A stretch of DNA of 64,000 nt from Candidatus Paceibacter sp. (GTDB taxonomy: Bacteria; Patescibacteriota; Minisyncoccia; UBA6257; 02-FULL-45-10c), in the NCBI GenBank assembly GCA_020724845.1, contig DYGE01000001.1, forward strand, positions 122,664-186,663, read 5' to 3'. Position numbers and translations under genes: made by a program. The notes beneath the pieces were generated by a model that was not told the DNA's origin, did not search any database, and saw only the letters and a list, made by a program, of their open reading frames with translations. This document shows, piece by piece, positions 3,429 through 44,282 of the stretch (the first letter of the stretch is position 1; each line of letters starts with the position of its first letter).

Positions 3429-3468
3429 ATTTTAATATAAAAAAAGCCCTATTGAAAGAGGAGGTTGT

Positions 3469-3798: not shown

Positions 3799-3809
3799 GT
3801 AAAATCAGT

Positions 3810-4856: not shown

Positions 4857-4863
4857 ATAAAAT

Positions 4864-19666: not shown

Positions 19667-21316
19667 TCACTCAACAGTAATGTTAATCTTGTCAGGATTT
19701 GTTGGCACGGTCTTTACCCAAAATGGCCATAGGGATATCGTCGCGCTTTCCAGGCCGGGCAAGGAAAAGACCGCGGTTTTTAGTTCTGTTTCTGATTTCC
19801 CTAAAATCCTGGACTGTAAATCATCAATATCAATGCGCTTTGCAAGGACCGCCTTGAAATCCACCGGGAAAGACAGGATGCCTTTTCCGAAATCAACCCT
19901 CGCCAGCCCGAACTCAATCTCCGAAGATCGGATGTCAAAATCTTCCCCATTGTCTCTTTTCGCTCTTAAAGCTAGCAGTTCCTGCAAGTCCTCTTCCTTG
20001 AAAGCCACCGCAGTCATTTTTGCTTCCGTAAAAATCCCAAATTCCCCATTCTCATCCGCCTCTTCATCAATTGCCTGCTCTAGCACCTCATACTCTGTTG
20101 CGCCATCAAGTACTTTGAACTCTTGGGGAATTTGAGTTAGCAAAGCGGCTTTTAGCCCACCCTCCAGCTCGTCCCCAGCTTTAGATCTTGCCTGGGCAAT
20201 ATCTTCGGAAGTCGGATAAGCAACTTCTCCAATAAAGCCTCCGGACATGTCGCCAGTAGATTCTCCATAAAAAGACTGATATTTGGGCGTTCCTTTAAAT
20301 CCGGGGATAGTAAATAGTTTCACCGGACCGATGTTAAATTCCGGCCCCGGCTCGTCGGCAATAACTTCCGCGTCAATGTTAGAAGGCACGATCTTACCTT
20401 CAATGATTTTGGCTCCCGGCACGGTTATGCCGTCAGCTAACCTATACATTTTTCCATCCGGACTTATAAAACGGGTTCGCTCAACCAATGGCTGCGGATC
20501 GGAACTGTAGCTGTTGTATACGGTAATTACGCCAGTCGCGTGCCGTTCAACTTGGCGCCTGCCAGTCGCGGGAAACTTGAGATGAAGATTCTTGCTTTCC
20601 GAAAAAATCTGGTTCGGAATACTCATGCTCCCGACATCTAAACCTATGCCGGTGTTGGTGTTGATGGAATCATTATAATTCCAATCCTTGGTCTGTGCCA
20701 CGATAGTAACCGCGGCCCGCGGCAAAACTACGGCTCCCGCCCAGCCGGCCAAAGCCAAAGCGGCGGCAACGATAAATATACTCAACCAGCGAGAGCTTGG
20801 CAAAGATAATTTAGGCATAGAAATTTTCGGCAAAGGCAATCGTCTTCCTTCCGTTGGCTTCTTTTCCTCCCCCTTTGACAGCTTGCCAAAAATAGTGAGC
20901 GGGCTCACCGGAGAGATAAATGGCTTTTCAGCTTCCGCTTCAATCGCCTTCGGCTCCTCCGCTTCTTCAACTTCCTCTTCCTGGAAAACTTTTGCTACCG
21001 GCTTTCTTTTCTTGGCCTTGCCTGCTTTTGGGGCGACTATGTCGGAAAACTGGCGCTTATTCTTAGTAAAGAATGGATTAACTGCTGACAGGCCGCTCAT
21101 TTCAGCTAATTCGATGACATGATCATCAACTGATTCAATAGAAATTTTTTTATCTAAGGCGTCGGCTTCCCGTTTCAAGAGGTGAAAATTACTCAAAGAC
21201 TCTCCTAGATGAGAAAACCTGGGTATGCTTAAAATAACCTCGTTATCAGGAGTATCGATAATTTTCTCAACGATGACCGCTACCTCATCGCTTTTGTTAA
21301 CTGAAATTTTCTTCAT
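19667..21316 (-). CDS. Bitopic membrane protein with a large extracytoplasmic domain; function unknown
   Basis: K/E-rich cytoplasmic N-terminus, one TM helix (WLSIFIVAAALALAGWAGAVV), then a roughly 330 aa outside domain. Confidence 0.4.
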   Translation of the reverse strand: MKKISVNKSDEVAVIVEKIIDTPDNEVILSIPRFSHLGESLSNFHLLKREADALDKKISIESVDDHVIELAEMSGLSAVNPFFTKNKRQFSDIVAPKAGKAKKRKPVAKVFQEEEVEEAEEPKAIEAEAEKPFISPVSPLTIFGKLSKGEEKKPTEGRRLPLPKISMPKLSLPSSRWLSIFIVAAALALAGWAGAVVLPRAAVTIVAQTKDWNYNDSINTNTGIGLDVGSMSIPNQIFSESKNLHLKFPATGRRQVERHATGVITVYNSYSSDPQPLVERTRFISPDGKMYRLADGITVPGAKIIEGKIVPSNIDAEVIADEPGPEFNIGPVKLFTIPGFKGTPKYQSFYGESTGDMSGGFIGEVAYPTSEDIAQARSKAGDELEGGLKAALLTQIPQEFKVLDGATEYEVLEQAIDEEADENGEFGIFTEAKMTAVAFKEEDLQELLALRAKRDNGEDFDIRSSEIEFGLARVDFGKGILSFPVDFKAVLAKRIDIDDLQSRILGKSETELKTAVFSLPGLESATISLWPFWVKTVPTNPDKINITVE

Positions 21317-21338
21317 TCTGTTAAAGATAGAAATCGTT

Positions 21339-22604
21339 TTATGTTACTAACCACCTCACTCTCCTGTTAGCCAAATGGCTCATCTTATCATTCTGCGGCA
21401 GGAAATTTATCTCGAAAAAAGCCGACAGCAAGGAGAACAGATTCCTTACCCTGACCGTTTTTTTCAATTGTACATCATATCCCAGCTTTTCAGTAATAAG
21501 ATTTGTGGATAAAGGAACTAGTTTCAATGATTTCTCAAAGCGGCTCTGAAATCTCCCGGAAAATACGATCGGGGGCATGGTAAAAAAGGAATTTACATAC
21601 ACCAAAGACACGCCGTCATTCGCGAGCGTCTCCAACCCGTTGGCGAATAATTGCAATTCCTTCACTAGGATATTTTCAAACCTTCTAAGAAATACCTGGG
21701 AAGCGTTATCCTCGGCATAATTTTGGATTATCTGCCTGGCGACCGGCGGATCAACTCGAAAATATCTGGCCAGCAAGTGGACTAAATCATTCTCCCCCCA
21801 GCCAAAATTGTCTAAATGAGCCAAGCGGCCATTTAAAGCGGAAAAAACAGAGGTTTGGTTTGGGAAAAGATTCGCCACTAAGAATTGGTTTTCCTCGAGA
21901 ACACGATTCAGCACATGGCTCATTGCCGTGCCCGATTCGGTTATAAGCGCTATATTGTCTTTCGGCAAAAGATCGCGTATTCCGCGCATCAACTCCCTAA
22001 TAATGAAAGTCTGGCTGAAAAATATTTCCACGGATTTCGCTTTGAAGCCGATTGGATTGACGATCTTGTGGCCGTCCAGCTTGATGCCGCGGATCCGGAC
22101 ATCGCTTAGCAGAACATCCACGTCATCAATATTCATTTTTCTGGCGACTCTCAATCGCTTGCGGTCAAAAAATCTCCAAATGGCCTGGGAAATCAAATTA
22201 TCAATATCCGCCTCATCAATAGTCTCTTTGCGATTCGGACGGACTAAAGAAACCGATGAATGGATCGTGGTGGCAAAGTCAGAATCTAGACTTAAAATAA
22301 TCTTATACCTCTCCAGCTTGCGGACTTTTTTCAGGCCCGCCTCCAGCTCGCGCAAAATTCCGGAGATGTTGAAATCCGCTACAGGAAGGATCCAATTTTT
22401 TTTGATATAAATTTTCCTGCGCTCCAAGCTAGCCTTTAAAACAGTTATTTGCACGTAATGATTCAGGACTTCTATGAGAAGGTAATTATCTCCGTATAAA
22501 AAGTGCAGAAGATGCTCCCTAGTCCGATTAAAACCCTTCTTCAAAGAAGAAAGAATGAGCGGAGTATTCTCCCTAATCGGATTTATGTAATTTAAGTCCA
22601 ACAC
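21339..22604 (-). CDS. Hypothetical protein, possibly a degenerate actin-fold FtsA/PilM-like protein
   Basis: Only weak resemblance to actin-like phosphate motifs (ILSLDSDFATT, LITESGTAMS). The call is speculative. Confidence 0.3.
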   Translation of the reverse strand: MLDLNYINPIRENTPLILSSLKKGFNRTREHLLHFLYGDNYLLIEVLNHYVQITVLKASLERRKIYIKKNWILPVADFNISGILRELEAGLKKVRKLERYKIILSLDSDFATTIHSSVSLVRPNRKETIDEADIDNLISQAIWRFFDRKRLRVARKMNIDDVDVLLSDVRIRGIKLDGHKIVNPIGFKAKSVEIFFSQTFIIRELMRGIRDLLPKDNIALITESGTAMSHVLNRVLEENQFLVANLFPNQTSVFSALNGRLAHLDNFGWGENDLVHLLARYFRVDPPVARQIIQNYAEDNASQVFLRRFENILVKELQLFANGLETLANDGVSLVYVNSFFTMPPIVFSGRFQSRFEKSLKLVPLSTNLITEKLGYDVQLKKTVRVRNLFSLLSAFFEINFLPQNDKMSHLANRRVRWLVT

Positions 22605-22649
22605 CCTTAATTATACCATAAAAACAAAATCGGCTCGCCTTGAGCCGAT

Positions 22650-23297
22650 TCAAACCTTGCGAGCCAGTATGGCGCGCGATAATTCGTCAAATTTAACGTC
22701 CGAGTTAGCTATTTGATACATAATCCCCTTGGTAGCATGCCAAAGCCCGAACAAATGCCCTTGTTCGTGGGCGGTAACCAAGGCCAGCTTCAAGCGATAA
22801 TCCAGGCGGCTAAAATCAGTTACTGGTAGCGCGTACCCGTTAATGGATTGCGCGTCATCGGTCCCCACAACCATCACTCCGTTGCCAGCGGCTTTACCCT
22901 TATGTATAGGCGCAAAGCCATTACCGGTGAGCATCAGGCCGCTCAAAAACAGACTGACGTTTGTCCTATCCTCGCCGCGAAGCAAGATCGCTTCTTCAAA
23001 CAAAATTAAATCCAGCTCCTTTTTGCAGACTTGATAGAAAAAAGATACTTTCGCGAGCGTTCTCAAGAAAAAAATCCACGCTTCCGCAAGGAAATCCCTT
23101 TTCCAATGCTTAACCTTGACGCGGTCAAGATCATATCTTAGCATCAGCCCGTTCTCAACTTGATATATGCGCATCACCTCTTCCAAAATATCTTTTGGAG
23201 TAACCTTGTGAGCATACAAATCTTCTCCCGCTTTCGCGTCCACATAAACAGTAACTGTCCTAAGCAGCCCCAAAGGACTGTAGTCGCTATCAGGCAA
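22650..23297 (-). CDS. Metzincin-type zinc metallopeptidase (archaemetzincin/M54-like)
   Basis: The extended zinc-binding motif HEQGHLFGLWH (HExxHxxGxxH) lies near the C-terminus of the 215 aa protein. Confidence 0.5.
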   Translation of the reverse strand: MPDSDYSPLGLLRTVTVYVDAKAGEDLYAHKVTPKDILEEVMRIYQVENGLMLRYDLDRVKVKHWKRDFLAEAWIFFLRTLAKVSFFYQVCKKELDLILFEEAILLRGEDRTNVSLFLSGLMLTGNGFAPIHKGKAAGNGVMVVGTDDAQSINGYALPVTDFSRLDYRLKLALVTAHEQGHLFGLWHATKGIMYQIANSDVKFDELSRAILARKV

Positions 23298-23364
23298 CTA
23301 TCCCCCGTATTTAGCTATAAAGAATCGTTATCTGTAAAATAACTCAATATCCAGAGCGAGTCAA

Positions 23365-23398
23365 AAGAAAAATAGTAAAAGCTCCGATTACTCGGAGC
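23365..23398 (-). terminator. Intrinsic terminator after the TelA-like gene
   Basis: Hairpin gctccgagtaatcggagc followed by a T-run on the minus strand. Confidence 0.55.
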
Positions 23399-23408
23399 TT
23401 GTGTAAAG

Positions 23409-24485
23409 TTAAGAATCCTGCCCGCCGTCCACGACCTCGGCGTCCACGACATTCGTCTTGTCCACCTTTTCGTTTTTCGGCTTCACCTCTTCCACTATCA
23501 CTTCGCCTTCTTCCCGGTCTCCATCTCCATCCTGATCGGCGCCACCCTTGTCCTTGTTGGGGCCGGTCAGCTGCTTCATGTTATCCTTACGCTTCTGCTT
23601 GAACTCCAGCAGTTCCTTATCCAGCGTCTTTCTGCCCTGGTCCAGCAGCTGGAGCATTGCCCCGGAGGTGATGGAATACTTATCCACCAACTGCGCCGCC
23701 TTAACCGAATGGTTGATCGCCTCGAGAGAAGCAATGAACACTTCGCTCAAAACACCCCTAGCGGCGAACATGGCTTGGCTCGTCTTAGTGAGCTCGCGCG
23801 CGGTATCCCGCAAAGCGCTCATCTCGCGCTGCGCCTGGGTGAAGTCATGATATTGCTTCATGCCTTGCCGGAAAACAGTGAGGCCGGCAATCGCCGAACG
23901 CCTCAACGTTTCCAGAAGCGCGTTGCCAATCACGATATTGCCTTTAAGGTTGTTGAGGATATCCTGCTTCTGCTCTTCTCTTTCCTCTTCTGTCAGCGCT
24001 TCAAACTCCTCGTCAAGCAGCTGCACCACCTCATCAAAGATCTCAATTCCAGCTTTCTCCGCCATGTAATTCTGAAGCTCTTGAGCGCTCCAATTTTCCT
24101 TTTCAGCGCGCTTGATGTCCTCTTCCAATTGCTGAAGCTCTTCTTTCTTTTTGATCGTAACCTGCGCGATAGTACGCAACGCTTCCTGGGTATTGTTCAG
24201 ATTCCCTTCCATCTGAGACTCCATCATGTTCATGACATCCGTCTCTTCCATAATGTAACGAGAAACCCGAGCCGGGAGTGCGGGCATCCAACTCTTAGGA
24301 GTAACTTTGGCTAGGGCTTTTGCAAGGATACCCCTGCCGTTACCACCATCCAAATTCAGCGCCTCTTTGATATCATCATTGATGCCCTGAAGGTTAGTAC
24401 CGCTCTCTTGCAACTTCTTGACAGCGGACCGCAAATCCGCATCCGACTGGATCTTCTTCAGCTCCTTCTTTTGGTTCTCGGACAT
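23409..24485 (-). CDS. Coiled-coil stress-type protein, TelA/PspA-like (toxic anion resistance family?)
   Basis: About 360 aa, strongly helical with heptad repeats, and a strong AGGAGG RBS before the MSENQKK start. The gene has about 57% GC against roughly 45% in its surroundings. The family assignment is tentative. Confidence 0.4.
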   Translation of the reverse strand: MSENQKKELKKIQSDADLRSAVKKLQESGTNLQGINDDIKEALNLDGGNGRGILAKALAKVTPKSWMPALPARVSRYIMEETDVMNMMESQMEGNLNNTQEALRTIAQVTIKKKEELQQLEEDIKRAEKENWSAQELQNYMAEKAGIEIFDEVVQLLDEEFEALTEEEREEQKQDILNNLKGNIVIGNALLETLRRSAIAGLTVFRQGMKQYHDFTQAQREMSALRDTARELTKTSQAMFAARGVLSEVFIASLEAINHSVKAAQLVDKYSITSGAMLQLLDQGRKTLDKELLEFKQKRKDNMKQLTGPNKDKGGADQDGDGDREEGEVIVEEVKPKNEKVDKTNVVDAEVVDGGQDS

Positions 24486-24583
24486 CGTGCCTTCCTCCTT
24501 CTTCCTTTTACAGATTTTAACTTCTTGATGCTGGTCATATATTAGCATATTACTTAAAAGGCGTCAAGGACATTCAGGCCCAA

Positions 24584-24609
24584 AGAAAAACCACCCTGTG
24601 TCAGGGTGG
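24584..24609 (-). terminator. Intrinsic terminator
   Basis: Hairpin ccaccctgacacagggtgg followed by a T-run on the minus strand. Confidence 0.55.
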
Positions 24610-24620
24610 CCCGATAAGAG

Positions 24621-24869
24621 TTATCGGAAGAAAGTGTTGCCGTTCCGCACCGCATACCAGATGTAAGCGAGTACGAGAACAACCGCTAAAGGAAGGGCAA
24701 ACGAGGAGAATAAGCCAATCACCAGAGCCAGCGCCCAGAATACTCCGTAAGCGCTGACTAAGAAGAGAATGGCCCGCATCAGCAAGCCGCCGGAGGATCC
24801 CTTCAGCAGGTACTTGAGAAGCGCCAAAACGAGCGGATTCAGTAAGAGCTTACGCAGGATCGGAGGCAT
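24621..24869 (-). CDS. Small two-TM membrane protein (82 aa)
   Basis: Two hydrophobic helices. It lies in the GC-rich cassette and overlaps the upstream ORF by 20 nt. Confidence 0.4.
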   Translation of the reverse strand: MPPILRKLLLNPLVLALLKYLLKGSSGGLLMRAILFLVSAYGVFWALALVIGLFSSFALPLAVVLVLAYIWYAVRNGNTFFR

Positions 24870-25200
24870 TGCCCTCCGCGCCTCCTTTGTCGATCTTGGT
24901 CTCCTCAGCGGTCGTCTCGATCACCTGATCCGTCTGACCGACCTCTTTGACGTAGCCCTCCAAAGCCGCCCTGGCGCCGGCGACAACCGACTCCACGGCT
25001 TCGCTGTGGGTCTGGCCCACCTTGCGAAGCGGCTCGTAACGCCCGTAGAGCAGGCGCTTCAGCTGAAGGTTCGGATCCACCGAACGCTTCGCCGTCTCCA
25101 CCACTTCGGCGCCGGCTCGCTTCGCGAGACCGAGTATGTCCTGTCCGACTTTCAGCGCCGCCTGTCCGAGCGATTCCTTCCCGGGTCTTCCTCCCGTCAT
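24850..25200 (-). CDS. Small soluble Ala/Gly/Val-rich hypothetical protein (116 aa)
   Basis: GC-rich coding region; the AAAGGAGAGG RBS sits 7 nt upstream of the ATG. Confidence 0.4.
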   Translation of the reverse strand: MTGGRPGKESLGQAALKVGQDILGLAKRAGAEVVETAKRSVDPNLQLKRLLYGRYEPLRKVGQTHSEAVESVVAGARAALEGYVKEVGQTDQVIETTAEETKIDKGGAEGNASDPA

Positions 25201-25262
25201 ATTCTCACCTCTCCTTTGCAGTTTCCACTAGCTGTCAAACTATGCTGCTTTGCATATACTAA

Positions 25263-25298
25263 CAAAAAAGCCATCTCCCGTCAAGAGCGAGAGATGGC
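25263..25298 (-). terminator. Intrinsic terminator
   Basis: Hairpin gccatctctcgctcttgacgggagatggc followed by TTTTTT on the minus strand. Confidence 0.55.
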
Positions 25299-25314
25299 TC
25301 GGTAATTTCCAGCG

Positions 25315-26130
25315 CTACCAACGCTTCCAATCAAAGACAGCCGCGGTTACTAAACTCTGAAGCTTCTCAAGTTCAAAATACTTGGTGCTCTCCTGAAAAA
25401 CTTGCTCAACCTCAACAGCGTTCCCGATCTTCAGCGCGCACTCGGCTGTTAAAACTATGACGCCATCATCAAGCAGACGACTCTCCCTTTTAACCTCAAA
25501 ATGGTGCTCCAGGAATTTCCTATCGCCTGATCGAATGGCGACCAATTGCTTGATGCGCAGCCGATCTTTTTCGTCAACTTTCAAAATAGTCTGCAGCATA
25601 ATCTTATAAGATACCGTACGGCTTTTAAAAGCGCCTAAAAATCCTCCTTCCCCGCAGCTGCAGGATATGGTCTCCTCCGATAAAACCGCCCACTCGGTGA
25701 AAGAATTAAGAAGAGCAGCCAACGTAGGATTGCTCACCCTTTTACCGGCGCTAATTTCTCTTGGCGCGGCTGGATTTTTCCAATCAAGATAACTCGCTAT
25801 ATCCGCTACCACAGATCCAGGCGAAGGCAGCTTAGTGGCCTTATCCCAGGCAATCTTACGATTAATTAAGTCGTCATTCAGATACCTAATCGTTTCTGCC
25901 TGCGCCTTGAGCGCTGCATAAAACATCACCAGAAGATAAGAAGTGCTTGCGTTCTCTTTGCAAAACCTCTTGATCTTCCCGCAAATCCGCTGCAGCCTCC
26001 GGATTGACTTATGGTAGTCAACGAAATCCCGGGGCAGATCTTTTTGAGCGAGCTTAACCTGATCTGGCGCCGCTTGGCCGTTTGTCGATTTCGGTATTCT
26101 CCCCTCTATATCTCCACCATAGTATACCAT
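25315..26130 (-). CDS. Hypothetical protein
   Basis: A 271 aa ORF containing a CSCGEGG cysteine cluster; no family assigned. Confidence 0.35.
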   Translation of the reverse strand: MVYYGGDIEGRIPKSTNGQAAPDQVKLAQKDLPRDFVDYHKSIRRLQRICGKIKRFCKENASTSYLLVMFYAALKAQAETIRYLNDDLINRKIAWDKATKLPSPGSVVADIASYLDWKNPAAPREISAGKRVSNPTLAALLNSFTEWAVLSEETISCSCGEGGFLGAFKSRTVSYKIMLQTILKVDEKDRLRIKQLVAIRSGDRKFLEHHFEVKRESRLLDDGVIVLTAECALKIGNAVEVEQVFQESTKYFELEKLQSLVTAAVFDWKRW

Positions 26131-26132
26131 TC

Positions 26133-26738
26133 TTAACCCTCCGGATCCGATTCAGATTCAACAATCTTCTTTGGTTTGCGCGCGGTAAGTTCATGGCGCA
26201 GCTCCTTAAAAGGAAAAAACTCCTGGCCATCAAGCGAATGCGATTTTAGCAGTTCATGGCATCGGAAATACACGAGACTGTCAGCTTGGTAAATAATCGC
26301 AGTCAAAACAACTGTTGCGATGAATGTTCCCATGCCACCGAAAAACCAGAAGGCGGCATCTCCTAGAAAGAAGCCCATTTTCAGATACAAGGATACCAGA
26401 GAAATACTGACCAAGGGGTATGAAATCCTTTGAAGGATCGCCCAGGGCTTCGCTTTTTCAGCGAGAAAATCAGCTAATTCTCTCAACTGGCCCTCGTTGA
26501 AAGCCCGTAAATTCTTTCTGCGCACCCCCTCAAAGTGGCGCGCCGTTTCAATGAAAGCTTTCACGAATTTTTCCTTACGCTCGCGCAATTCTCCGCTCAT
26601 AACCTTTATTGCGGCTATCCTCCGCGTCCGTTCGTTGCCCTCTCTCACGCTTCGCAAAGTCTCCAACAACTGCTCGCGCTCCCTCTGCTTGACCAGATTG
26701 GCTTCCGGCCTTTGGACCATAGCTTGCTCGCCTGGCAT
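26133..26738 (-). CDS. Membrane protein with a cytoplasmic helical N-domain and a C-terminal TM bundle
   Basis: The 201 aa architecture is shared with the ORF at 27003-27659 and may be paralogous. Confidence 0.4.
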   Translation of the reverse strand: MPGEQAMVQRPEANLVKQREREQLLETLRSVREGNERTRRIAAIKVMSGELRERKEKFVKAFIETARHFEGVRRKNLRAFNEGQLRELADFLAEKAKPWAILQRISYPLVSISLVSLYLKMGFFLGDAAFWFFGGMGTFIATVVLTAIIYQADSLVYFRCHELLKSHSLDGQEFFPFKELRHELTARKPKKIVESESDPEG

Positions 26739-26797
26739 ACTTCCTCCTTTTCACTTCTCAAGAAGATTACCTGACTGTTTCATATTATATAATAATA

Positions 26798-26950
26798 ATT
26801 GTAAAAGGTCAACCCCGCACCTTTCAAGGATTGCTTTTCAGAATAGACGCTGAAAAGAGGATAACGATTTATCTATAACAATCTTTAACTAAAATACCTT
26901 ACTGAATTCACGTATGGGTGAATTCTTATCCTTGAAAGGCGCGGGTCAAT
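26798..26950. repeat. GTCAACCCC-foot hairpin repeat H3
   Basis: gtcaaccccgcacctttcaaggat ... atccttgaaaggcgcgggtcaat with a loop of about 105 nt. Confidence 0.6.
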
Positions 26951-27002
26951 AAAAAAGCCTCAAGGATTGTTATCCTTGAGGCGGCTGAAACAAAAGCGGT
27001 TA

Positions 27003-27659
27003 TTACTTCTTCGCTTCCTGACGATTCTGGTTCCACCCAAGACAAGCGGCAAATTTTTCCACTGGAAAGTAATTCTGCCCGTAATGCCTTTTCAGCAAAG
27101 AACGGAAATAAAAGAACCTTAGGCCAGTGATAACCGAATTCTTGCTGTAAAAGACGATTCTACCCGCGGATTTCAACAGGCCTCCGACAAATGAAAGAAG
27201 CTGTCCTTGTAGAATTTTTCTGCCCAAAACCAGGGGAAAAACAACCGCTATCACTAAAGATATCAATAACAAAGGAAGTAAGACCGGAGCTAAAATCAGA
27301 GAACCGATTCCTAAGATCGGAACATAAAGCCCCGTCTTCATAATAAACCACACAACCAGGAAGCCGGCGCCAAGTTCGAGCGGCGCCCAAACGGCCATGC
27401 TCCTCATTACCTTTCTGGCGAGCAGATTGGCTGTTTCTGACAGCTGTTCCTGATTAAATCCGGTTAAGTCGGTTATATGGCCAATGACTTTATGGGCTCT
27501 GGCCAGCTTAAGAAAATCTGCCATAAACTGATCCCTGGCCCCCGATAACTTCAGCTGCAACTCTCTCTGCTGTCTCTCGGAAGATTTGCTAGCCAGCTTA
27601 GAAATGGTTGCCTCGCGCGGAGTGGACTTGATCAGCTTGAATGATCGCTCTTCGTCCAT
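27003..27659 (-). CDS. Membrane protein with a cytoplasmic helical N-domain and a TM bundle
   Basis: A 218 aa ORF. The terminator hairpin gcctcaaggataacaatccttgaggc sits downstream at 26946-26975. Confidence 0.4.
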   Translation of the reverse strand: MDEERSFKLIKSTPREATISKLASKSSERQQRELQLKLSGARDQFMADFLKLARAHKVIGHITDLTGFNQEQLSETANLLARKVMRSMAVWAPLELGAGFLVVWFIMKTGLYVPILGIGSLILAPVLLPLLLISLVIAVVFPLVLGRKILQGQLLSFVGGLLKSAGRIVFYSKNSVITGLRFFYFRSLLKRHYGQNYFPVEKFAACLGWNQNRQEAKK

Positions 27660-27740
27660 CTTTTCCCTCCATATTCGGATTTTCCTGTACCGAGATACAT
27701 GATAACATATTTTTCTAAAAAAGCAAAATTTAAAAACGCC

Positions 27741-28358
27741 TCATTCTTGAGGCGCTAAATGAATTTCTTTTGCTTCCTTTATAACTTTTTCCAGCTCATC
27801 CGCCAGCTCCTCGCTGACACTCTTGACCATCCGCTTATTGGAACGCCAGCGATTTTGGATAATCTCTCTGTTTATCTCTATCACTTTCAAATGCGGCACT
27901 TTAACCTCTCTCAACTCTCCATCAATCCATTTCACAACCGTTTTAATGCCATCGGGCAATTTTACCGATAATACAGCTCTTAAACGCTCCTTATTTTTAC
28001 CTAATTTAGGCCGATATTCCATTTTAACGGAGACAAAGTGCGGCACATGCTCCGAATTCGGCACAGCCCGGTAATCAACTAAACTATGCTTGCGGCTCTT
28101 TAACTCTTCCTGCAGCGAATCAAGCAATTTCGCCGCTATTTTCTCTTGCTCCTTATACTTATCGGAAGACACCTCGTTTCCTTCCGCCCAGCGGACTATC
28201 CTTGAGTCTTTAACTTCTAAATTCTGGTAAACATCAACGTAACCCAAGACTATCATATAGCCGGCCGCTGGCGATACATTCATGGCCATCAAACTGAAAG
28301 ATAAAATCCCTGCCAGTATCGCTTTCTGGCGGCTTGCCATTTGCCTGCCTGCCTTCAA
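27741..28358 (-). CDS. Signal-anchored hypothetical protein
   Basis: N-terminal hydrophobic segment and a charged C-terminal domain (205 aa). Confidence 0.35.
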   Translation of the reverse strand: MKAGRQMASRQKAILAGILSFSLMAMNVSPAAGYMIVLGYVDVYQNLEVKDSRIVRWAEGNEVSSDKYKEQEKIAAKLLDSLQEELKSRKHSLVDYRAVPNSEHVPHFVSVKMEYRPKLGKNKERLRAVLSVKLPDGIKTVVKWIDGELREVKVPHLKVIEINREIIQNRWRSNKRMVKSVSEELADELEKVIKEAKEIHLAPQE

Positions 28359-28430
28359 ATTATTTTCAAGCTACAAAAAAAATTTTACAAAAAATCCAAG
28401 AAGATGGCAAATGAAGCTGCCGAGTAAATC

Positions 28431-30173
28431 TCATTCTACGTCAGCGCGGATACGCTTCACCCCCGCGCCGACGGATTCTTGTTTAGTAATTTTAAATTTG
28501 CCGACCTTCAACGTATTGGTTACATGAGGGCCGCCGCAGAATTCTTTGCTAAAAGCATCATCCAAATTATGGCCGGCATAATATACTTTTACCCGATCAG
28601 GGTATTTTTCTTTGAAGAAGAACAGAGCGCCGGTTTCCTTGGCCTCTTCTAGCGGCATTTCTTTATAGCTCATCAGCAAATCCTTTTGGACAACCTCATT
28701 CACCAAGTCCTCAACTTTCTGCAGTTCTTCCGACGTTAATTTTCGAGGAAAAGAGAAATCAAATCTTAATCTTTCCGCGGTAATGTCCGATCCCATCTGC
28801 TTCACCTCGTCACCAACGACCTTTCTCAAAGCCGCCTGCAAAAGATGGGTAGCGGTATGAAGGCGGGTAACTTTTTCCAGCTCTTCTTGAGTGGAGGCCT
28901 TTAACTCTCCGGTATCTAAAATCAAGCCGTGGCCGCCAAATTTCTTTTCCAAGCCGGCGCGCGAGATTTCCTGGTGTTTCTCAAATTCTTTATCAAAATC
29001 TTCTTTTTTCAACTCCCCCGTCTTATCCGGAACCAATTCTTTCTGAAGCTCAAAGGGCAAGCCGAATGTTTCATAAATATAGAATGCATCTTTGGCTGAA
29101 ATCGCGTCGTATTTTTCTATCTCCTTAACGCCTTGCGCGAGCGCTTTCTCAAATTTGGACTTCTCATCCATCATCACATTTAAAATCTCCCTGTCATTCT
29201 CCATTTCCGGATACCATTTTGCATATTGGTTTTTAATTACCGGAACAGCCAACGCAAAAAGCTCGGCGTGAATGTCATGCTTAATTTCATAGACTAAGAC
29301 TCTGCGAAGCAATCTGCGCAAAATATATCCGGCTTCTTTATTGGAAGGCCGCACGCCATCGGCAATCAAAAATATGGCTGACCGCAAGTGATCCGCAAGC
29401 ACCCTGACAATCCTGTCTTCTAAACCCGGCTTAGCTTCCCGAATAACCGATGCCAGCGGATGAAAAAGATCAGTTTCAAAGACATTGCCAGATCCCTGCA
29501 GCATTACCGCCAACCTTTCCAAGCCCATTCCCGTGTCCACTCCCGGCATTTCTAATTTTTCCAAGGATTTATCGGATCTGCAGTAATACTCGTTAAACAC
29601 CAAATTCCAGATCTCCACTCCATCTACATAGATCTCCGTAGTCGGACCGCAAGGCCCTTCATTTCCAGTCGGGCCCCAAAAATTATCCTCTCTCCCATGC
29701 TTTTTGATATTCTCCTCCGGCAAACCGACTTCTTTATGCCAAATATCATATGATTCCTTATCAAAAGGCACTTCCTCGTCTCCGCCAAAGACAGTCACAT
29801 AGATCCTATCCCTGCTTAACCCAAGGATATTCACGACAAAATCGTAGGCCCAATTTATCGCCTTTCTTTTGAAATACCCGCCGAAAGAAAAATTGCCCAG
29901 CATTTCAAAAAATGTCAGGTGAGTTTTATCGCCCACCTCGTCTATGTCGGAAGTCCTAAAACACTTCTGGACGGAAGCAGTATTCCTGCTCCCAAACTCT
30001 TTCATCGGATCGGCTTTTCCTATGTAATACGGTTTGAATTGCTGCATGCCGGCGGTAGTCAAAAGCACCGACGGGTCATCGGGAATTAATGACGAGGACT
30101 TGACCACTGCGTGCCCCCGCTCTTCAAAAAATTGCAGAAATTTTTTGCGAATTTCACTGGATTCCATAGACAA
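28431..30173 (-). CDS. alaS: Alanyl-tRNA synthetase, short form (catalytic and editing domains, no C-Ala domain)
   Basis: The N-terminus ...FLQFFEERGH..SSSLIP.DPSVLLTTAGMQQFKPYY matches AlaRS, and the editing-domain motif HTATHLL is present. At 580 aa it is far shorter than the typical 870 aa. Confidence 0.8.
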   Translation of the reverse strand: MSMESSEIRKKFLQFFEERGHAVVKSSSLIPDDPSVLLTTAGMQQFKPYYIGKADPMKEFGSRNTASVQKCFRTSDIDEVGDKTHLTFFEMLGNFSFGGYFKRKAINWAYDFVVNILGLSRDRIYVTVFGGDEEVPFDKESYDIWHKEVGLPEENIKKHGREDNFWGPTGNEGPCGPTTEIYVDGVEIWNLVFNEYYCRSDKSLEKLEMPGVDTGMGLERLAVMLQGSGNVFETDLFHPLASVIREAKPGLEDRIVRVLADHLRSAIFLIADGVRPSNKEAGYILRRLLRRVLVYEIKHDIHAELFALAVPVIKNQYAKWYPEMENDREILNVMMDEKSKFEKALAQGVKEIEKYDAISAKDAFYIYETFGLPFELQKELVPDKTGELKKEDFDKEFEKHQEISRAGLEKKFGGHGLILDTGELKASTQEELEKVTRLHTATHLLQAALRKVVGDEVKQMGSDITAERLRFDFSFPRKLTSEELQKVEDLVNEVVQKDLLMSYKEMPLEEAKETGALFFFKEKYPDRVKVYYAGHNLDDAFSKEFCGGPHVTNTLKVGKFKITKQESVGAGVKRIRADVE

Positions 30174-30276
30174 AATTTTATCATGAAATTCGCAAACCAG
30201 GAAGTGAAAATTTTGATTATCGAATTTCTACTTCCTGAAAACAAAAAGGCGCATACGCAGCGCCCTTATTTAAGGT

Positions 30277-31077
30277 TTACGGCCCAACACTTATGGACCA
30301 ATTATAAAAGCCTTTTATGTGATATATCCCGCCTCTAGCAAAATGGAAATGTATAGATTTCGCAGTTCTTGAGCGTAAATCTAATTCAGATAACAACTTT
30401 CTGTTTCTCCTAAAAAGATCTCTAATTTCAATTACTTTTTCTTTTCTCTTAGTTGTGCCAAGGCCGCCTTCATACTCGATCCTAAAGATTATATCGCCCT
30501 CTTGAAATCCTGCCTTATGCGCAAAACTCTCCGGAACCACATGATTCACAACAGCCTCTCCGCTCAAATTAGTAACTTCCAAATCGGAAGCTGCCAGTTT
30601 CGCGACCTCGTCGTTGGAAATATACTTAGTTCCCGAAAGGCCAGTGATTTTATCAATCACCTCCACAGTGATAAATTCATGCTCCTTATAATACGAGCAT
30701 TGATTTCCGGTTGTGGATTTATGAAAAATCTGCAGGACCTCTTCGGGCGTCTTATGCAAAGCAGATTCAAATGTAACTTCGCCAGAACCGCCGCCTTTCG
30801 ACCAACAGCTAACAGAAATCGCCAGGATAAGGTCTCCGCTCCGTAGCGGAGCAGAACCTATTCCGGTATGTTTTTCTCGCAGGGTGGCATCCTTTGATGA
30901 ATATTTAATCGCAGGAACTAGTTTAGGAGACGAAGATGCATCTACCAAGCTCATGCCATAATCATAATAGAAAAGCAAATACGGCCTGTCCGCGAACTGG
31001 GCAGATGCTTGATTCGTAAAAAACAACACCGCGACTGCTAGGATTATCTCTCTCACCACACACCTCTCAAAGGACAA
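30277..31077 (-). CDS. Secreted PDZ-domain protein
   Basis: Signal peptide, then a PDZ-like segment VVPESFAHKAGFQEGDIIFRIE. Confidence 0.4.
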   Translation of the reverse strand: MSFERCVVREIILAVAVLFFTNQASAQFADRPYLLFYYDYGMSLVDASSSPKLVPAIKYSSKDATLREKHTGIGSAPLRSGDLILAISVSCWSKGGGSGEVTFESALHKTPEEVLQIFHKSTTGNQCSYYKEHEFITVEVIDKITGLSGTKYISNDEVAKLAASDLEVTNLSGEAVVNHVVPESFAHKAGFQEGDIIFRIEYEGGLGTTKRKEKVIEIRDLFRRNRKLLSELDLRSRTAKSIHFHFARGGIYHIKGFYNWSISVGP

Positions 31078-31188
31078 CTTCCGTCAAATTTCTCTGACCA
31101 CCATAATATACAGCTAATATATCACTATGTCAATAAAAAGCGCCCACATCGGGGTTTTTCCATTTTTCCGTTGCTAGCCAAATATTCT

Positions 31189-32742
31189 TTATTTCAAAAC
31201 TCTCTGAATTAGGGGGCGAGCCGCTTTTTCCCGGTCAAATTTTTCTTTGAGCTCCGCAATAAGCCCATTCAGTTCCAATTCCAACTGCCAAAGCAATACT
31301 TTGGAATTCCTCAAAACAGGCATAATCTTGTCTATCCCAGCCTCTTCCGCCGCCAAGTCCGAAAGCTCCACCAATACCCGCTCCGAAAGAGCCAGTAACT
31401 CAAAGAGGCGCTGGTTACTTTCTTGATTAAGACTATTATCGGCCGCTTGACTGAATAACGAATCGTATTTATTCCTAAGCTCTCCCATTTCGTAACTCAA
31501 ATTGTCCGTAAAAGAAATTCGATTAAGGGAATTCTTAGCCGCGGCAGCCGCCACGCTGGCTTGCCCGAAAGAAGAAGCATATTGTCCGATGGCAAAAGAT
31601 TCTTCCGCCTGCTCCAAGTTAAATTCCGCGTTTGCCAAAAGCTCATTTAAAGATTTGCTTCGCAAATTTTCTTTTTGGATTTTGTTCTCTAAAAATTCGG
31701 CGGTTTTTGAAGCTCTCGCCAGCATGTGTTCCGCCTCTGTTTTGCCTATTTTCCTAGAATTCTCTGAAAGCTCTAAAAGAAGCTGTCTTACCAAACTGAA
31801 GTCATTTTTTAATTCCTGATCGGTAAAATACTCGCGGCTTTCATCCATAACCCTAATCCTCGCGGAAGAATCCCCCGGCAGGCGCTCTAACAAAGCTGGC
31901 AAAACAGAATTAAGTTCACTAATAACTATCCTGGCTTGAGTTTCCAATAACAGATCTTCCTTGGATTGCAGGAGCAGCTCGCTTAGCCATTCATTTAATG
32001 GAAGCGACCCTTCCCAGCTATCTAATATTTCAGCAGATCTTAACGCCTTAAAAGCTCCGCCAGGCTGATTCGCTAACACGGAAGCAAAACGGATTCTGGA
32101 GCTTTCCTGGTTGTCTAGCTTAATTAAAGCGCTGGTAACAACCGCCCCGAGCTTCTTTTCTAAAGAGCTAAGCTTTCGGCTTCCTGCCGGATCGTTATCC
32201 GGCTCCAACTGATCAAATAACTTACTATGCTTCAATCCGGCATCCAGCAGGCGATTTAATAAATCGCTAAGGCCTGCGTTTCTGTCATCTCTTTCAATTC
32301 GCGCCAAATAATATCCGAGGTTATCCAGGGTGGCTTCATATGCATCAAGCGCCGAGACTAGGACCTCGCTATTATCCGGAATAATCTCTTCTAATCGCTT
32401 TAATTCCGCCGCCTTTTCATTTAAAGTATTAAGTTCAAATTCCGCTTTCTCCACGGCATTAAATTTAAAAGCGCGCAGAGTAGTCCTGCGAAACTGCTTC
32501 ATAAAATAAAACGGATTGGTGTTCAATATCCCAGGGTTAATCACTCCTAAGTCTTCCAAATCCACAGCCTCTTCTTCTATCAACCTTAGAACCAGGCTAT
32601 TTTGGACCTCCTGGGCGTTAGCAATCGGGCTTCCAAACATGGCTGGATTTAAAGCGGCGCTAGCCATCAGAGGCGCTGAAACCAAGCCGAAAACGGCTGT
32701 TAAAATAGATATTTTATTGCGTTTACCCATGAATTTCGGCAA
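31189..32742 (-). CDS. Secreted coiled-coil hypothetical protein
   Basis: Signal peptide and long helical repeats (517 aa). Confidence 0.35.
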   Translation of the reverse strand: MPKFMGKRNKISILTAVFGLVSAPLMASAALNPAMFGSPIANAQEVQNSLVLRLIEEEAVDLEDLGVINPGILNTNPFYFMKQFRRTTLRAFKFNAVEKAEFELNTLNEKAAELKRLEEIIPDNSEVLVSALDAYEATLDNLGYYLARIERDDRNAGLSDLLNRLLDAGLKHSKLFDQLEPDNDPAGSRKLSSLEKKLGAVVTSALIKLDNQESSRIRFASVLANQPGGAFKALRSAEILDSWEGSLPLNEWLSELLLQSKEDLLLETQARIVISELNSVLPALLERLPGDSSARIRVMDESREYFTDQELKNDFSLVRQLLLELSENSRKIGKTEAEHMLARASKTAEFLENKIQKENLRSKSLNELLANAEFNLEQAEESFAIGQYASSFGQASVAAAAAKNSLNRISFTDNLSYEMGELRNKYDSLFSQAADNSLNQESNQRLFELLALSERVLVELSDLAAEEAGIDKIMPVLRNSKVLLWQLELELNGLIAELKEKFDREKAARPLIQRVLK

Positions 32743-32856
32743 TTAAGCCAATAAAAAAAGCCTATTCAAATAAGCTTTCAGATATAGTTTCACGATAAAA
32801 ATGACCTTATTTACTTAAGGTCATTATACCATATCGACTCCCAAAAGTCACCTCTT

Positions 32857-34104
32857 CTAGTAACCCTCTATCGTGTGGGATTTGCCATGCTGGCGAATAC
32901 GACTCAATGCTTTAGCTTCAATTTGCCTGATGCGCTCGCGAGTGACCGCAAATTCTTTGCCTACTTCTTCAAGGGTATGAGTAATACCGTCTTCCAGGCC
33001 GAAGCGCATTTGTAGAATCTTCTGCTCTCTTGGAGTCAGGTCAACCAAGATTTCTTTAATTCTTTCCCTAAGCAAGGTTTGAGAAGCGATCTGGGACGGC
33101 GTTAAGCTGTGAGTATCTTCAATAAATTCAGACAAAGACGACTCGTCATCCTCCTCGCCGACAGGCGCTTCCAAAGAAACCACTTCTTGCGAAATCTTTT
33201 GGATATGATGGACCTTTTCGACCGGAATACTCATTTCAATCGCTATTTCCTCTGGAAGAGGGTCGCGGCCAAGTTCCTGAATAAGGTGCCGCTTCGCTTG
33301 CGTGTATTTTGAGATAGTTTCCACCATATGCACCGGGATGCGAATAGTTCTGGACTGATCAGCCAAAGCGCGGGTAATCGCCTGCCTGATCCACCAAGTT
33401 GCGTAAGTTGAGAATTTAAAGCCGCGGCGATAGTCAAATTTAGATACCGCTCTAGCCAAGCCAATATTGCCTTCCTGAATAAGGTCCAAAATGCCCAAGT
33501 GCGGACTTCGGTTCACATAACGCTTCGCGATTGAAACTACTAAACGCAAATTAGCTTTTATGAATCTCTGCCTGGCCTCCTTATCCCCTTTCTCTATTCT
33601 CTTGGCCAATTCTCGCTCTTCTTCCGTTGTGAGAAGGTCGGTACGGCCTATTTCTTTAAGATAAGTCTGCACCGAATCGGGTAATTCCGCGCCCCCTCGG
33701 TCAACTTCCTCCAATTCCTTCTTGCTGATCTCATCTTTCGGCAATTCAATCAACTGACTAGTCTCCACAACCTTAATATTGGCAGTTTCCAGCTGGGTAT
33801 AGATCTCTTCCAAGAAAGCCACGTCGTCTTCAACGCGCGGGAAATAGTGGAGCACCTCGGTATCCGTTACAAATCCTCGGCTGCGGCCCCTGTCAATAAG
33901 CTCTTCAAGATTCTGTTCATCAGTCCCGGATTTTTTCGCTGGCCTTGCTGCCTTTTTCGGCTCTTTCGCCCCGCCCTTTCTGGCCTTTTTTCTAGCAGAC
34001 GCCTTCTTACCCTTTTTAAGAGGCTTTTTCTTGGCTTTAGGCTTCACCGCCTTCCTTTTTGCCTTAGAGCGCTTAGATTTTTTTAACTTATTTTTTTTCA
34101 TCAT
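32857..34104 (-). CDS. rpoD: RNA polymerase primary sigma factor
   Basis: Region 2 ([40 protein letters not shown]), regions 3 and 4, and a Lys-rich N-terminus. Confidence 0.9.
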
Positions 34105-34237
34105 AAATTTTAAGCCTTCCTATATTAGTTCCTACTATTAGAATATCCGCGCTTAATTCGTATATTCGGAAAGTCTACTTGCTTAATTTTGATTCCTTTC
34201 AGTGGAAAAAGCAATACTTGGCCTAGAACGCGCCTTC

Positions 34238-35977
34238 CTATCGTAAGGCATTTAACTCGCTTGAAAGGGCGGCGTATTCCTCCATGGCTTCTTGGAGGCC
34301 CTGATCGCTCCCTGACTGCTCCAGACGGTGGATTAACTCGCTTACTTCTTGCCGCCTTTCCTTTAAATATTCAACTTTCAATTCCCGCAGTAGGTTTTGC
34401 ATCTCTTTCTTTAAAGTCTCCGCCTCAAAATCCTGGTTTTCCAAGCTAAACTTCAAGCTAATCGTGTTCATAATCTCCCGAAGCTCGTCTTTGGTCTCAT
34501 TCGCATCGCTGACTAGGCTCTCATAAACCCGGAGATGTTCTTTCGGGAAGTACCGCAAGCTCTCCTCTAGCAAGCGCAAGTCATCTTTAAGATGCATCAT
34601 TACGCCTAGAAGCCTTTCGGAAAGCAATTCCCTTCTGGAAAGCTTTCTGGAGTCGGACTGGCTGGCAGCGGCATCCAACTGTCTCTCTAGCGCATTAACC
34701 CCCTTAAGCATTTCCATCTCTTCCGCTAAAATACTTTCCTCTATCCTGACAATAGCTGACAACTCCTTTAGCCAATGGTTTCTGTCAATCGGACTGGCTA
34801 AGCGTTTTATCTTTGAAAGAACAATACGGAGGTTTTTCTTTTTTGATTTAACGTCCGCAGGCGCGTTCTTTGCGTATTTATGGAAATAATATTCCATTGC
34901 TGATTTCGCTTGCTCCGCCAAAGACTTTATTATCCCGGGTTTCTTCTTGACCACATCAGCCGGATCCTTTAAATCCTTATCGTCAATAGTCAAAAGCCGA
35001 ACAGCGAAATCGTGCGCGCCGGCAAGGTCAATCGCGCGCTCAGCCGCTAACTCTCCCGCCTCGTCAGCATCAAAACTCAAAACCAGCTCATCTGCCAATC
35101 TGCGCAAAGCTTGCAGATGATCTTCGGTAAGCGAGGTGCCGGAGGTAGCGATAACGTTCTTAATGCCGTCTTGCCAAACCATCAAAAAATCCATCTGGCC
35201 CTCCACCAGTACCGCGGTTTTAGTTTCCCTGATCTCATTTTTAGTCTTGTAAAATCCGTATAATATTTTTGATTTTTGGAAAATGGGGGTTTCCGGGCTG
35301 TTAACATACTTGCCGACATTAGGATTGTCCGCGCCCGGAAGAATCCTGCCGGTAAAAGCGACTACTTTGCCGAAATGGTTATGAATAGGAAACATCAGGC
35401 GGGAACGAAAACGATCCCAATAAGTGCCCCTTTCGGTTTTGATGGTCAGTCCGGCTTTTTCTATATCCAGGATATTATATCCGAGCTTGAGCAAATGCCT
35501 GGTTAAAGCGTCAGAAACGCCAGGCGCCAAACCAAGTTCAAATTCTTGGACTGTTTCCAGCTTCAGCCCGCGCTCCCTTAAATAAGCATTAACTTCCTGG
35601 GACTTGTCCAAACTCGCTTTAAAGAAATTCTTCGCCTCTTCCATTATTTTATAAAGCGAATTATAGGACTGAAAATCCCGGTTGGCGCCGCCTTTCAGCT
35701 CTACCCCGGCTTTCTCCGCTAGAATTTTAAGGGCGTCATAGAACTCAATATTTTCATATTTCATTAAGAATTTAATAATGTCTCCGCCCTCGCCGCAAGA
35801 ACCAAAACAATGCCAGGATTGCCGCTCTGGAGACACTATGAAAGAAGGAGTTTTTTCCCTATGGAACGGGCAAAGGGCTTTGAAATTTTTGCCAGCTGGT
35901 TTCAGTTCCAGGTATTGTTTTAGAAAATCAACGATATCCAGCTTTTCTTTTATAATTTGAGCAGTGTCGGATGACAT
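34238..35977 (-). CDS. dnaG: DNA primase
   Basis: Zinc-binding domain CPFHREKTPSFIVSPERQSWHCFGSCGEGGD and a TOPRIM domain. It is followed by rpoD, the classic operon arrangement. Confidence 0.9.
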   Translation of the reverse strand: MSSDTAQIIKEKLDIVDFLKQYLELKPAGKNFKALCPFHREKTPSFIVSPERQSWHCFGSCGEGGDIIKFLMKYENIEFYDALKILAEKAGVELKGGANRDFQSYNSLYKIMEEAKNFFKASLDKSQEVNAYLRERGLKLETVQEFELGLAPGVSDALTRHLLKLGYNILDIEKAGLTIKTERGTYWDRFRSRLMFPIHNHFGKVVAFTGRILPGADNPNVGKYVNSPETPIFQKSKILYGFYKTKNEIRETKTAVLVEGQMDFLMVWQDGIKNVIATSGTSLTEDHLQALRRLADELVLSFDADEAGELAAERAIDLAGAHDFAVRLLTIDDKDLKDPADVVKKKPGIIKSLAEQAKSAMEYYFHKYAKNAPADVKSKKKNLRIVLSKIKRLASPIDRNHWLKELSAIVRIEESILAEEMEMLKGVNALERQLDAAASQSDSRKLSRRELLSERLLGVMMHLKDDLRLLEESLRYFPKEHLRVYESLVSDANETKDELREIMNTISLKFSLENQDFEAETLKKEMQNLLRELKVEYLKERRQEVSELIHRLEQSGSDQGLQEAMEEYAALSSELNALR

Positions 35978-43490: not shown

Positions 43491-43542
43491 ATCAAAAAAT
43501 AAGGCCCACCTTGCGGTGAGCCTTTGTGATAAAAGTCAATTA

Positions 43543-44208: not shown

Positions 44209-44282
44209 GATTTTTCTCCTCTTTGCTCCAGCATCTGCCGGAGCGGTTCTTGTCCCGACTCAACATCGGGACAGCCCAGCGA

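Follow-up and report, generated by a model that had tools for sequence, protein, structure and literature searches.

Do three adjacent genes on the chromosome of Candidatus Paceibacter sp. form a cassette of their own, and is the coiled-coil protein that one of them encodes an envelope-stress protein of the TelA or PspA type? The genes, here called cc358, tm82 and s116, lie in the interval 23365–25298 of the window, by which we mean the whole 64,000-nucleotide stretch of contig DYGE01000001.1 that was analysed. The original prediction, made from the sequence without database searches, took them for a GC-rich cassette of three separate units, probably acquired recently, with a TelA/PspA-like protein among its products. 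Its observations are partly confirmed and its interpretation is partly supported. The three genes are present, at 358, 82 and 116 residues, and they answer to the description given of them (an all-helical protein of about 360 residues, a two-helix membrane protein of 82 and an Ala/Gly-rich protein of 116). The cassette is not self-contained, as the same neighbouring gene families recur at other loci of the cc358 family. The real unit is larger than three genes and spans about 23379–27659, and the interval is the part of it that is rich in GC at third codon positions (GC3).

A module of five gene families

cc358 is not an orphan; with its sequence relatives it founds a family that has no name. 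An exhaustive HMMER search over 1.84 billion representatives recovers 104 clusters at an expect value (E) ≤1e-3 and 84 at E≤1e-10, with lengths of about 300–360 aa and matches over residues 12–300. Word-indexed searches are insufficient for this family: with cc358 as the query they return only cc358 itself, and with an 86-sequence alignment they return only the query and one divergent member (P0090; P and L numbers are our labels for family members and loci). A hand-made degenerate DNA pattern for the motif A..E.WDA..LQ.Y picks up five true loci among 22 matches.

Gene neighbourhoods were compared in 15 loci, the window and 14 further loci of the family (hereafter the cc family), and several features recur. 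First, h271-like genes are present in 8 of the 15 loci and h201-like genes in 8, with one or the other in 12; the three loci lacking both types are those of the divergent members P0090, P0110 and P0034. Second, homologues of h271 lie 1–2 kb from the cc homologue and on the same strand in L025, L031, L041, L044, L046, L053 and L054, and the homology is supported by blast (1e-29), by tblastn, and by hidden Markov model (HMM) matches of 5e-65 and 6e-52 at loci left out of training. Third, genes of the h201/h218 type flank the cc gene in L023, L025, L026, L029, L038, L044 and L053, often in two to four copies (two in the window, three in L044 and four in L053); h218 matches h201 at E 3e-5, and h201 matches its L026 homologue at E 5e-7. 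Fourth, s116-like proteins adjoin cc homologues in L025, L026, L041, L044 and L054 (leave-one-out HMM E 5e-6 to 0.018). Finally, small transmembrane-hairpin proteins occupy the position of tm82 in L025 (62 aa), L026 (109 aa) and L029 (94 aa), with no significant sequence similarity to tm82. Homologue matches in loci outside model building range from E 1e-65 to 2e-19.

Members of the cc family are thus repeatedly flanked by homologues of h271, h201/h218 and s116, and it is therefore the longer stretch that constitutes the unit. The module comprises five unannotated families: the coiled-coil hairpin proteins of roughly 340 aa to which cc358 belongs, s116, the tm82-type transmembrane hairpins, the multi-copy h201/h218 genes and h271. 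It occurs sporadically in small genomes of the Patescibacteria type, and its place on the chromosome varies. Members of the cc family are found in 0.1-um fractions of groundwater.

The partner proteins have some suggestive properties. Because Cys157, Ser201-x-Asp203 and His210 are invariant in h271, the alignment suggests a Cys/His enzyme or a metal site. The h201/h218 type and a separate family of about 150 aa ('YYFLR') have a common N-terminal motif, 'LIxxTxxEKLLxKI', seen in the window (26133–27659), L023, L026, L053 and L054, and its occurrence in both suggests that they share a peptide for docking or targeting. In s116-like proteins the C-terminal half (e.g. 'YQRLVKMGFPSKEARRMV') resembles a UBA or helix-hairpin-helix (HhH) unit, with matches that are not significant (one member to UBA_7 at E 0.0055, and Topoisomerase V HhH repeats at E 0.005). 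A search of the PDB with the s116 profile returned designed helical-repeat proteins only, through summed repeats, and was rejected as uninformative. In L044 (2728–4419 of Ga0209541_10004842) three h201-type copies follow the cc gene. In one of them, an open reading frame (ORF) of 239 aa, the last 55 or so residues are almost the same as the C-terminal end of the neighbouring cc protein, which looks like a duplication or recombination scar.

Database searches are consistent in returning nothing recognisable. cc358, tm82 and s116 give chance-level matches at best against Pfam, NCBIfam, PHROGs and PADLOC (TTL at E 0.08 and DrmB at E 0.077), and hmmscan of cc358 against Pfam gives none at E≤0.1. 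The partner families have no match in Pfam or the PDB. For ten proteins, the PADLOC-DB models give chance-level matches only (DrmB E 0.077, Cas11a E 0.005) and PHROGs gives none, and a set of 50,697 phage records contains no match. Since Patescibacteria have many unannotated families, the module is of moderate interest and not startling. No description of the cc358 family and its gene neighbourhood was found in the literature searched, and neither a survey of the phage shock protein system (PMC11237479) nor a review of ESCRT-III (PMC7619361) mentions Patescibacteria.

Chromosomal site, transcription signals and base composition

The window is a segment of bacterial chromosome containing dnaG, rpoD, alaS, infA, a ribosomal-protein block with rpoA, and aspS or lysS-type genes. 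Within a collection of species-representative genomes the closest are metagenome-assembled genomes labelled Candidatus Harrisonbacteria or Patescibacteria group (65–46% identity), and relatives were found with a 549-aa protein (h549) as the marker. In nine of them (L004, L006, L008, L009, L011, L012, L013, L016 and L021) alaS directly adjoins h421, and L004 and L008 also keep the longer order rpoD, h517, alaS, h421, h549 ... rpsM. The window has eight additional genes (22650–28358) between alaS and h421, namely h205, h218, h201, h271, s116, tm82, cc358 and pep215. In the synteny comparison proposed with the original prediction, the block is thus absent from this site in nine relatives, and the module here sits in an insertion of about 5.8 kb between alaS and the conserved h421 gene, which are adjacent in relatives. 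An integrase, tRNA, flanking repeats and att sites were searched for at the insertion borders and none was found.

The two ends of the insertion deserve separate mention. At the alaS-proximal end, h205 is absent from relatives at the alaS–h421 site and no homologue was seen in other cc-family loci; its membership of the module is uncertain. At the other end, pep215 (22650–23297) has a perfect metzincin motif, HEQGHLFGLWH (HExxHxxGxxH), and a sub-threshold match to Pfam Peptidase_M10 (E 7.6e-4, 19.8 bits against a cut-off of 24). It may be older than the remaining insertion, because relative L007 has a 26%-identical pep215-like gene at the same alaS–h421 site. Elsewhere in the window, a 266-aa protein with a weak PDZ match is encoded between h517 and alaS (30277–31077); the gene is absent from L004 and L008 and is therefore a second small strain-specific insertion near the first. 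The window also contains a homologue of VirD4/TrwB-type type IV coupling proteins (55927–57609), a weakly TraB/PrgY-like protein (36375–37295) and ComEC (46656–48071).

All genes in this part of the window are on the minus strand, and the features of the module are listed in Table 1. The reading frames of s116 and tm82 overlap by 20 nt, and the two genes have a single terminator in common; they are therefore likely to form one operon. The three separate units of the original prediction thus reduce to two predicted transcription units, s116–tm82 and cc358. The strong Shine-Dalgarno sequence ascribed to the coiled-coil gene is present (AGGAGG, 8 nt upstream of the cc358 ATG). The 358-aa start is the one called by NCBI, JGI and Logan, and an upstream start giving 379 aa is found in one catalogue only. 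All three predicted terminators are found, within a few bases of where they were placed, although they do not serve one cassette gene each, the third being that of h271. In order of transcription the signals and genes are the h271 terminator, a promoter-like site, s116, tm82, a terminator, a second promoter-like site, cc358 and its terminator. At 25256–25300 the −35 hexamer (TTGACG) of the s116 promoter-like site falls within the loop and stem of the h271 terminator, and the candidate termination and initiation signals therefore overlap. Rfam and tRNA scans find nothing within the interval. The sequence of tm82 begins with a hydrophobic/basic helix followed by a transmembrane hairpin predicted from hydropathy, and residues 26–76 are one unbroken hydrophobic stretch that fits two transmembrane helices. 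The Gly and Ala contents of s116 are 12.9% each.

Table 1. Genes and candidate transcription signals of the cc358 module and the adjoining h205 gene (window coordinates).
Feature	Position	Strand	Description	Basis
cc358	23409..24485	-	358 aa, all-helical coiled-coil hairpin with acidic disordered C-terminal tail	ORF and Shine-Dalgarno sequence
tm82	24621..24869	-	82 aa, net charge +7, small membrane protein	Hydropathy
s116	24850..25200	-	116 aa, Ala/Gly-rich, soluble, helical	Sequence
h271	25315..26130	-	271 aa, soluble; invariant Cys157 (CxCG motif), Ser201-x-Asp203, His210	Alignment
h201	26133..26738	-	N-terminal helical cytoplasmic part, transmembrane hairpin, C-terminal YGxxFFP-type motif	Paralogue of h218
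h218	27003..27659	-	Second h201-type membrane paralogue; own terminator 26982-26957	
h205	27741..28358	-	N-terminal signal or transmembrane segment; alaS-proximal end of insertion	
Intrinsic terminator 3′ of cc358	23379..23400	-	9-bp stem followed by T run	-14.7 kcal/mol, z -5.4 against shuffles
Intrinsic terminator 3′ of s116-tm82	24588..24612	-	11-bp stem	-16.6 kcal/mol, z -2.9 against shuffles
Intrinsic terminator 3′ of h271	25268..25300	-	13-bp stem	-22.4 kcal/mol, z -5.1 against shuffles
Promoter-like site, cc358	24539..24567	-	TTGACG-17-TAATAT, extended -10 TG	Consensus scan only; no evidence of function
Promoter-like site, s116-tm82	25256..25284	-	TTGACG-17-TAGTAT with TG	Consensus scan only

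The original prediction gave about 57% GC for the interval and about 45% for its neighbours. The measured values are 53.0% for the interval and 45.9% for the window; the interval is still GC-rich, and among the three genes only s116 reaches 64%. GC3 is 0.66 in cc358, 0.68 in tm82 and 0.75 in s116, against a mean of 0.51 (standard deviation 0.07) for 61 window genes, and just six of these 61 exceed the mean by more than 1.5 standard deviations: the same three and three further genes at 43179–45767. The anomaly is sharply bounded, the flanking h271 and pep215 having GC3 values of 0.51 and 0.53, and h271, h201 and h218 are of native composition. Codon bias of highly expressed genes was considered as the source of the peak and rejected, as the ribosomal protein genes in the window have no elevation (GC3 only 0.37–0.54).

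This deviation is not peculiar to the window. Among 13 loci from different genomes there are 11 in which the cc gene has a higher GC3 than the non-module genes beside it have on average (p about 0.02 in a two-sided sign test, our own calculation on these counts), with an excess of up to +0.15 to +0.23 in the window, L031, L044, L046 and L053; genes of the h271 and h201 types have no such excess. The GC peak is a property of the cc gene family, and in some loci of s116-like genes, across hosts of differing base composition. Because it recurs in this manner, it is not readable simply as recent transfer into this genome. The proposal of recent horizontal acquisition is partly supported: the absence of the block from the syntenic site in relatives, the GC3 values 2–3 standard deviations high and the normal ribosomal genes are in its favour, and the recurrence of the peak in the family limits what the peak says about this genome. 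The peak could come from a gene pool that circulates horizontally with a composition of its own, from GC-biased gene conversion at a recombination-prone gene, with which the near-identical copy of a cc C-terminus at the end of the L044 h201-type ORF agrees, or from some gene-specific constraint. There is a more general caution here, in that a local GC peak is not automatically a sign of recent transfer, and the GC3 excess in this case follows one gene family across genomes.

The second GC3-rich patch in the window (43179–45767, GC3 0.63–0.78) contains three genes without a Pfam match. They encode a protein of 103 aa with a transmembrane segment and a CxxC...CxxC arrangement, one of 221 aa with an N-terminal transmembrane segment, and one of 494 aa with a transmembrane segment at each end.

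A possible membrane scaffold or conflict system

The AlphaFold model of cc358 (AlphaFold 2 with the 86-sequence alignment) is all-helical, with a predicted local distance difference test score (pLDDT) of 67.5, a predicted template-modelling (TM) score of 0.58, and pLDDT values of 80–98 over residues 100–220; the single-sequence model is poor (pLDDT 47.8). It has a long hairpin, in which helix 84–129 packs against helix 166–236, with two short helices (134–163) at the tip, more helices at 263–306, and an acidic disordered tail. The tip is the most conserved part of the family, with A127 kept in 79 of the 86 sequences, E130 in 70 and W132 in 82, followed by L137, Q138 and Y140.

When the model is compared with the PDB by Foldseek, the top three matches are all Vipp1 chains (E 0.016–0.13, probability 0.85–0.99), the best being 7o3w_A (E 0.016, probability 0.99, TM-scores 0.23/0.38), and additional Vipp1/PspA entries are among the top 25. 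Profile comparison points in the same direction. Using a PspA/IM30 profile of six diverse proteins (from E. coli, Synechocystis, Nostoc, Arthrobacter, Clostridium and a haloarchaeon, drawn from PDB alignments and plasmid-borne PspA genes), hhalign aligns the cc358 family with a score of 22.6 (P 0.024). The reversed PspA alignment scores 15.7 and 100 shuffles of 7-column blocks score 15.2 ± 2.6, with one of the 100 reaching 22.6; the score is thus above the coiled-coil controls at about the 1–2% level. The alignment has 122 collinear columns, placing cc residues 79–225 on PspA 11–136 with both arms of the hairpin included, the tip Trp on the tip Trp, and the family 'aEExD' on PspA 'AEDP'. In the canonical ESCRT-III fold, of 200–250 aa and five helices, the hairpin is formed by H1 and H2/H3 (PMC7619361). 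The resemblance of cc358 to PspA and Vipp1 is weak; it is repeatable and fits a very remote ESCRT-III-like hairpin, and it is far from proof.

We tentatively favour, from among several readings none of which we hold with confidence, the view that the module is a membrane-recruited coiled-coil scaffold that is like PspA or LiaH in its logic. In this reading cc358 would be a scaffold in the cytoplasm with a long helical hairpin as its core, and the conserved tip of the hairpin (A127, E130 and W132, then LQ.Y) would be the docking surface for partners. The transmembrane-hairpin proteins would bring it to the inner face of the membrane; anchoring or sensing would fall to tm82 and the h201/h218 paralogues, a regulatory or chaperone role to s116, and h271 would possibly be a Cys/His enzyme. 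The logic would be that of LiaI–LiaH or PspBC–PspA, and the scaffold itself may have a very remote ESCRT-III/PspA-like fold. Support for this reading comes from the family of 104 clusters, the conserved neighbourhood (12 of 15 loci), the insertion relative to nine relatives, the hairpin with its conserved tip, the Foldseek and hhalign hints of a PspA-like hairpin and the predicted membrane partners.

However, there are several observations that weigh against a scaffold of this kind. First, none of the 86 aligned family members matches TelA (PF05816) or PspA_IM30 (PF04012) at E≤0.01, nor do they match any Pfam family consistently, and neither the cc358 sequence against PDB sequences nor the family profile against the PDB (including PspA and Vipp1 chains) gives a match. 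The original prediction had itself proposed these two Pfam profiles as the means of judging its label; this search came out empty, as did those of NCBIfam, PADLOC, PHROGs and PDB sequences, and cc358 is therefore a member of neither family by sequence. Second, Foldseek finds no PDB match at E≤1e-3, the TM-scores are 0.2–0.5, and generic coiled coils (Smc arms, FliJ, YscO, AhlC and BAR) are interleaved with the Vipp1 matches. Third, the hhalign probability is low, at 2% for the six-protein profile and 0.7% for E. coli PspA. Fourth, cc358 has 358 aa as compared with the canonical 200–250, with some 80 residues more at its N-terminus and 36 residues inserted at the tip. Fifth, ESCRT-III proteins bind the membrane through an N-terminal amphipathic helix, H0 (PMC7619361), and a hydrophobic-moment scan of cc358 residues 1–100, which is a crude test, finds no distinctive H0-like amphipathic helix. 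Finally, the family has a patchy distribution and close relatives lack it at this site, as is unusual for a stress system with a housekeeping role, and the gene neighbours of its distant members fit conflict systems at least as well.

These neighbours are as follows. P0090, in L024, starts 21 nt after the gene for a ubiquitin-like (Ubl) protein of an operon that comprises Prok-E2_D, Prok-JAB, ThiF (E1) and an 89-aa Ubl-like gene (1459–4941 of an SRR22387818 contig); L024 is probably not from a Patescibacterium, because a flanking protein ends in the outer-membrane-barrel-like ...GVYLF. P0110, a distant member but a true cc homologue (hhalign 99.4%), follows a Clp-type AAA+ ATPase. In this locus, L027 (775–3430 of GCA_964412735.1), the ATPase gene (AAA_2, AAA and ClpB_D2-small) is directly upstream of the cc-family gene, whose product lacks the tip Trp motif, and two large genes without a Pfam match follow. 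P0034 precedes a histidine kinase and a response regulator. In L054 a GIY-YIG gene adjoins the module.

The main rival, nearly as likely although we would still count it as improbable, is a conflict or defence module of an abortive-infection-like or toxin/immunity-like kind. Here cc358 and h271 would sense or scaffold, the membrane proteins would be permeabilising effectors or antidotes, and the module would move and diversify by recombination. Such a role agrees with presence or absence that varies between close relatives and with the different chromosomal sites, with the expansion of h201-type paralogues, with the apparent recombination scar in L044, with a cc gene whose GC3 deviates in 11 of 13 loci, with one distant member that directly follows an E2/JAB/E1/Ubl operon and another that follows a Clp-type AAA+ ATPase, and with the GIY-YIG gene of L054. 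However, the ten proteins searched match nothing in PADLOC or PHROGs, no effector domain such as a nuclease or an NTPase is recognisable, and the insertion has no integrase, tRNA or flanking repeats. Moreover, the defence-like neighbours are confined to divergent members that lack the h271 and h201 partners.

A bolder form of the scaffold reading seems unlikely, and more so than a conflict system. The cc358 family might be a very divergent, Patescibacteria-centred branch of ESCRT-III/PspA with adaptors of its own, and thus a new system of membrane remodelling or repair in ultra-small episymbiotic bacteria. The adaptors would be the transmembrane-hairpin proteins with their N-terminal docking motif, the UBA/HhH-like small protein and the Cys/His enzyme, and a connection to ubiquitin-like conjugation is conceivable, as hinted by the position of P0090 after the E2/JAB/E1/Ubl operon.

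It is more doubtful again that the module is cargo or a remnant of a Patescibacteria mobile element or prophage (structural or lysis genes, for example) that does nothing for the cell. The site carries an insertion when compared with close genomes, the composition is deviant, and each unit has a promoter-like site and a terminator, all of which would suit a remnant. However, no match is seen in the 50,697 phage records or in PHROGs, a fold search of BFVD with the cc358 model finds nothing at E≤1e-3 (among its non-significant matches are a phage PspA/IM30 protein at rank 12 and a phage TelA-like protein at rank 19, with E 0.2 and a TM-score of about 0.2), the borders lack an integrase, att repeats or tRNA, the flanking h271, h201 and h218 are of native composition, and housekeeping genes surround the module in every long locus.

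Least probable of all is the literal form of the original prediction, a TelA or PspA/IM30 envelope-stress protein with a LiaI-like anchor in a classical Psp/Lia-type module: the order of membrane protein and then coiled coil, the Vipp1/PspA fold neighbours, the collinear profile alignment above shuffles and the weak BFVD matches to phage PspA/IM30 and TelA-like proteins speak for it, and the proposed architecture is not contradicted, but PF04012, PF05816 and NCBIfam find no member, the hhalign probability is 0.7–2%, tm82 has two transmembrane helices rather than the four that define the LiaI-LiaF-TM domain (PMC11237479), and Pfam scans of all genes in 19667–35977 find no PspB, PspC, PspF, LiaF, LiaRS or Toastrack gene.

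A large part of bacterial diversity belongs to the Patescibacteria, whose accessory genes mostly lack annotation. Three 'hypothetical' genes here become five co-occurring families, for which there are alignments, conserved motifs and some 15 loci as examples, and thus a testable unit. If cc358 is a remote ESCRT-III/PspA relative, that ancient superfamily of membrane-remodelling proteins would be extended to a lineage and an architecture in which it has not been described; a conflict system, if the module is one, would be new, and few defences are known in these organisms.

Comparison with known systems

The closest comparison is with PspA, Vipp1 (IM30) and LiaH and their partners PspBC or LiaI. 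As in these systems, cc358 is an all-helical protein with a long hairpin, followed by more helices and a disordered tail, and is encoded beside small membrane proteins; its best, though sub-significant, fold neighbours are Vipp1 chains, and the hairpin arms are collinear with a tip Trp in both families. The differences are substantial. The PF04012 model matches 0 of the 86 family members and no H0 helix is evident; at 358 aa the protein is longer than the usual 200–250 (PMC7619361), and it has an N-terminal extra of about 80 residues and the tip insert, whose 36 residues are highly conserved. Furthermore, s116, h201/h218 and h271 are unrelated to PspB, PspC, PspF, LiaI, LiaF and Toastrack, and tm82, with two predicted helices and no Pfam match, differs from the four-helix LiaI-LiaF-TM domain (PMC11237479).

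The TelA/KlaA 'toxic anion resistance' proteins (PF05816) are similar to cc358 in size (about 350 aa) and in being all-helical, and a phage TelA-like protein is a weak BFVD match. However, neither cc358 nor the 86 homologues match PF05816, and the TM-score is about 0.2. A likeness to Bil-type ubiquitin-like conjugation operons (E2, JAB, E1 and Ubl) is given by the divergent P0090, which directly follows such an operon in L024, whereas the window is without E1, E2, JAB and Ubl genes; the link is that of a single locus and a distant member of the family.

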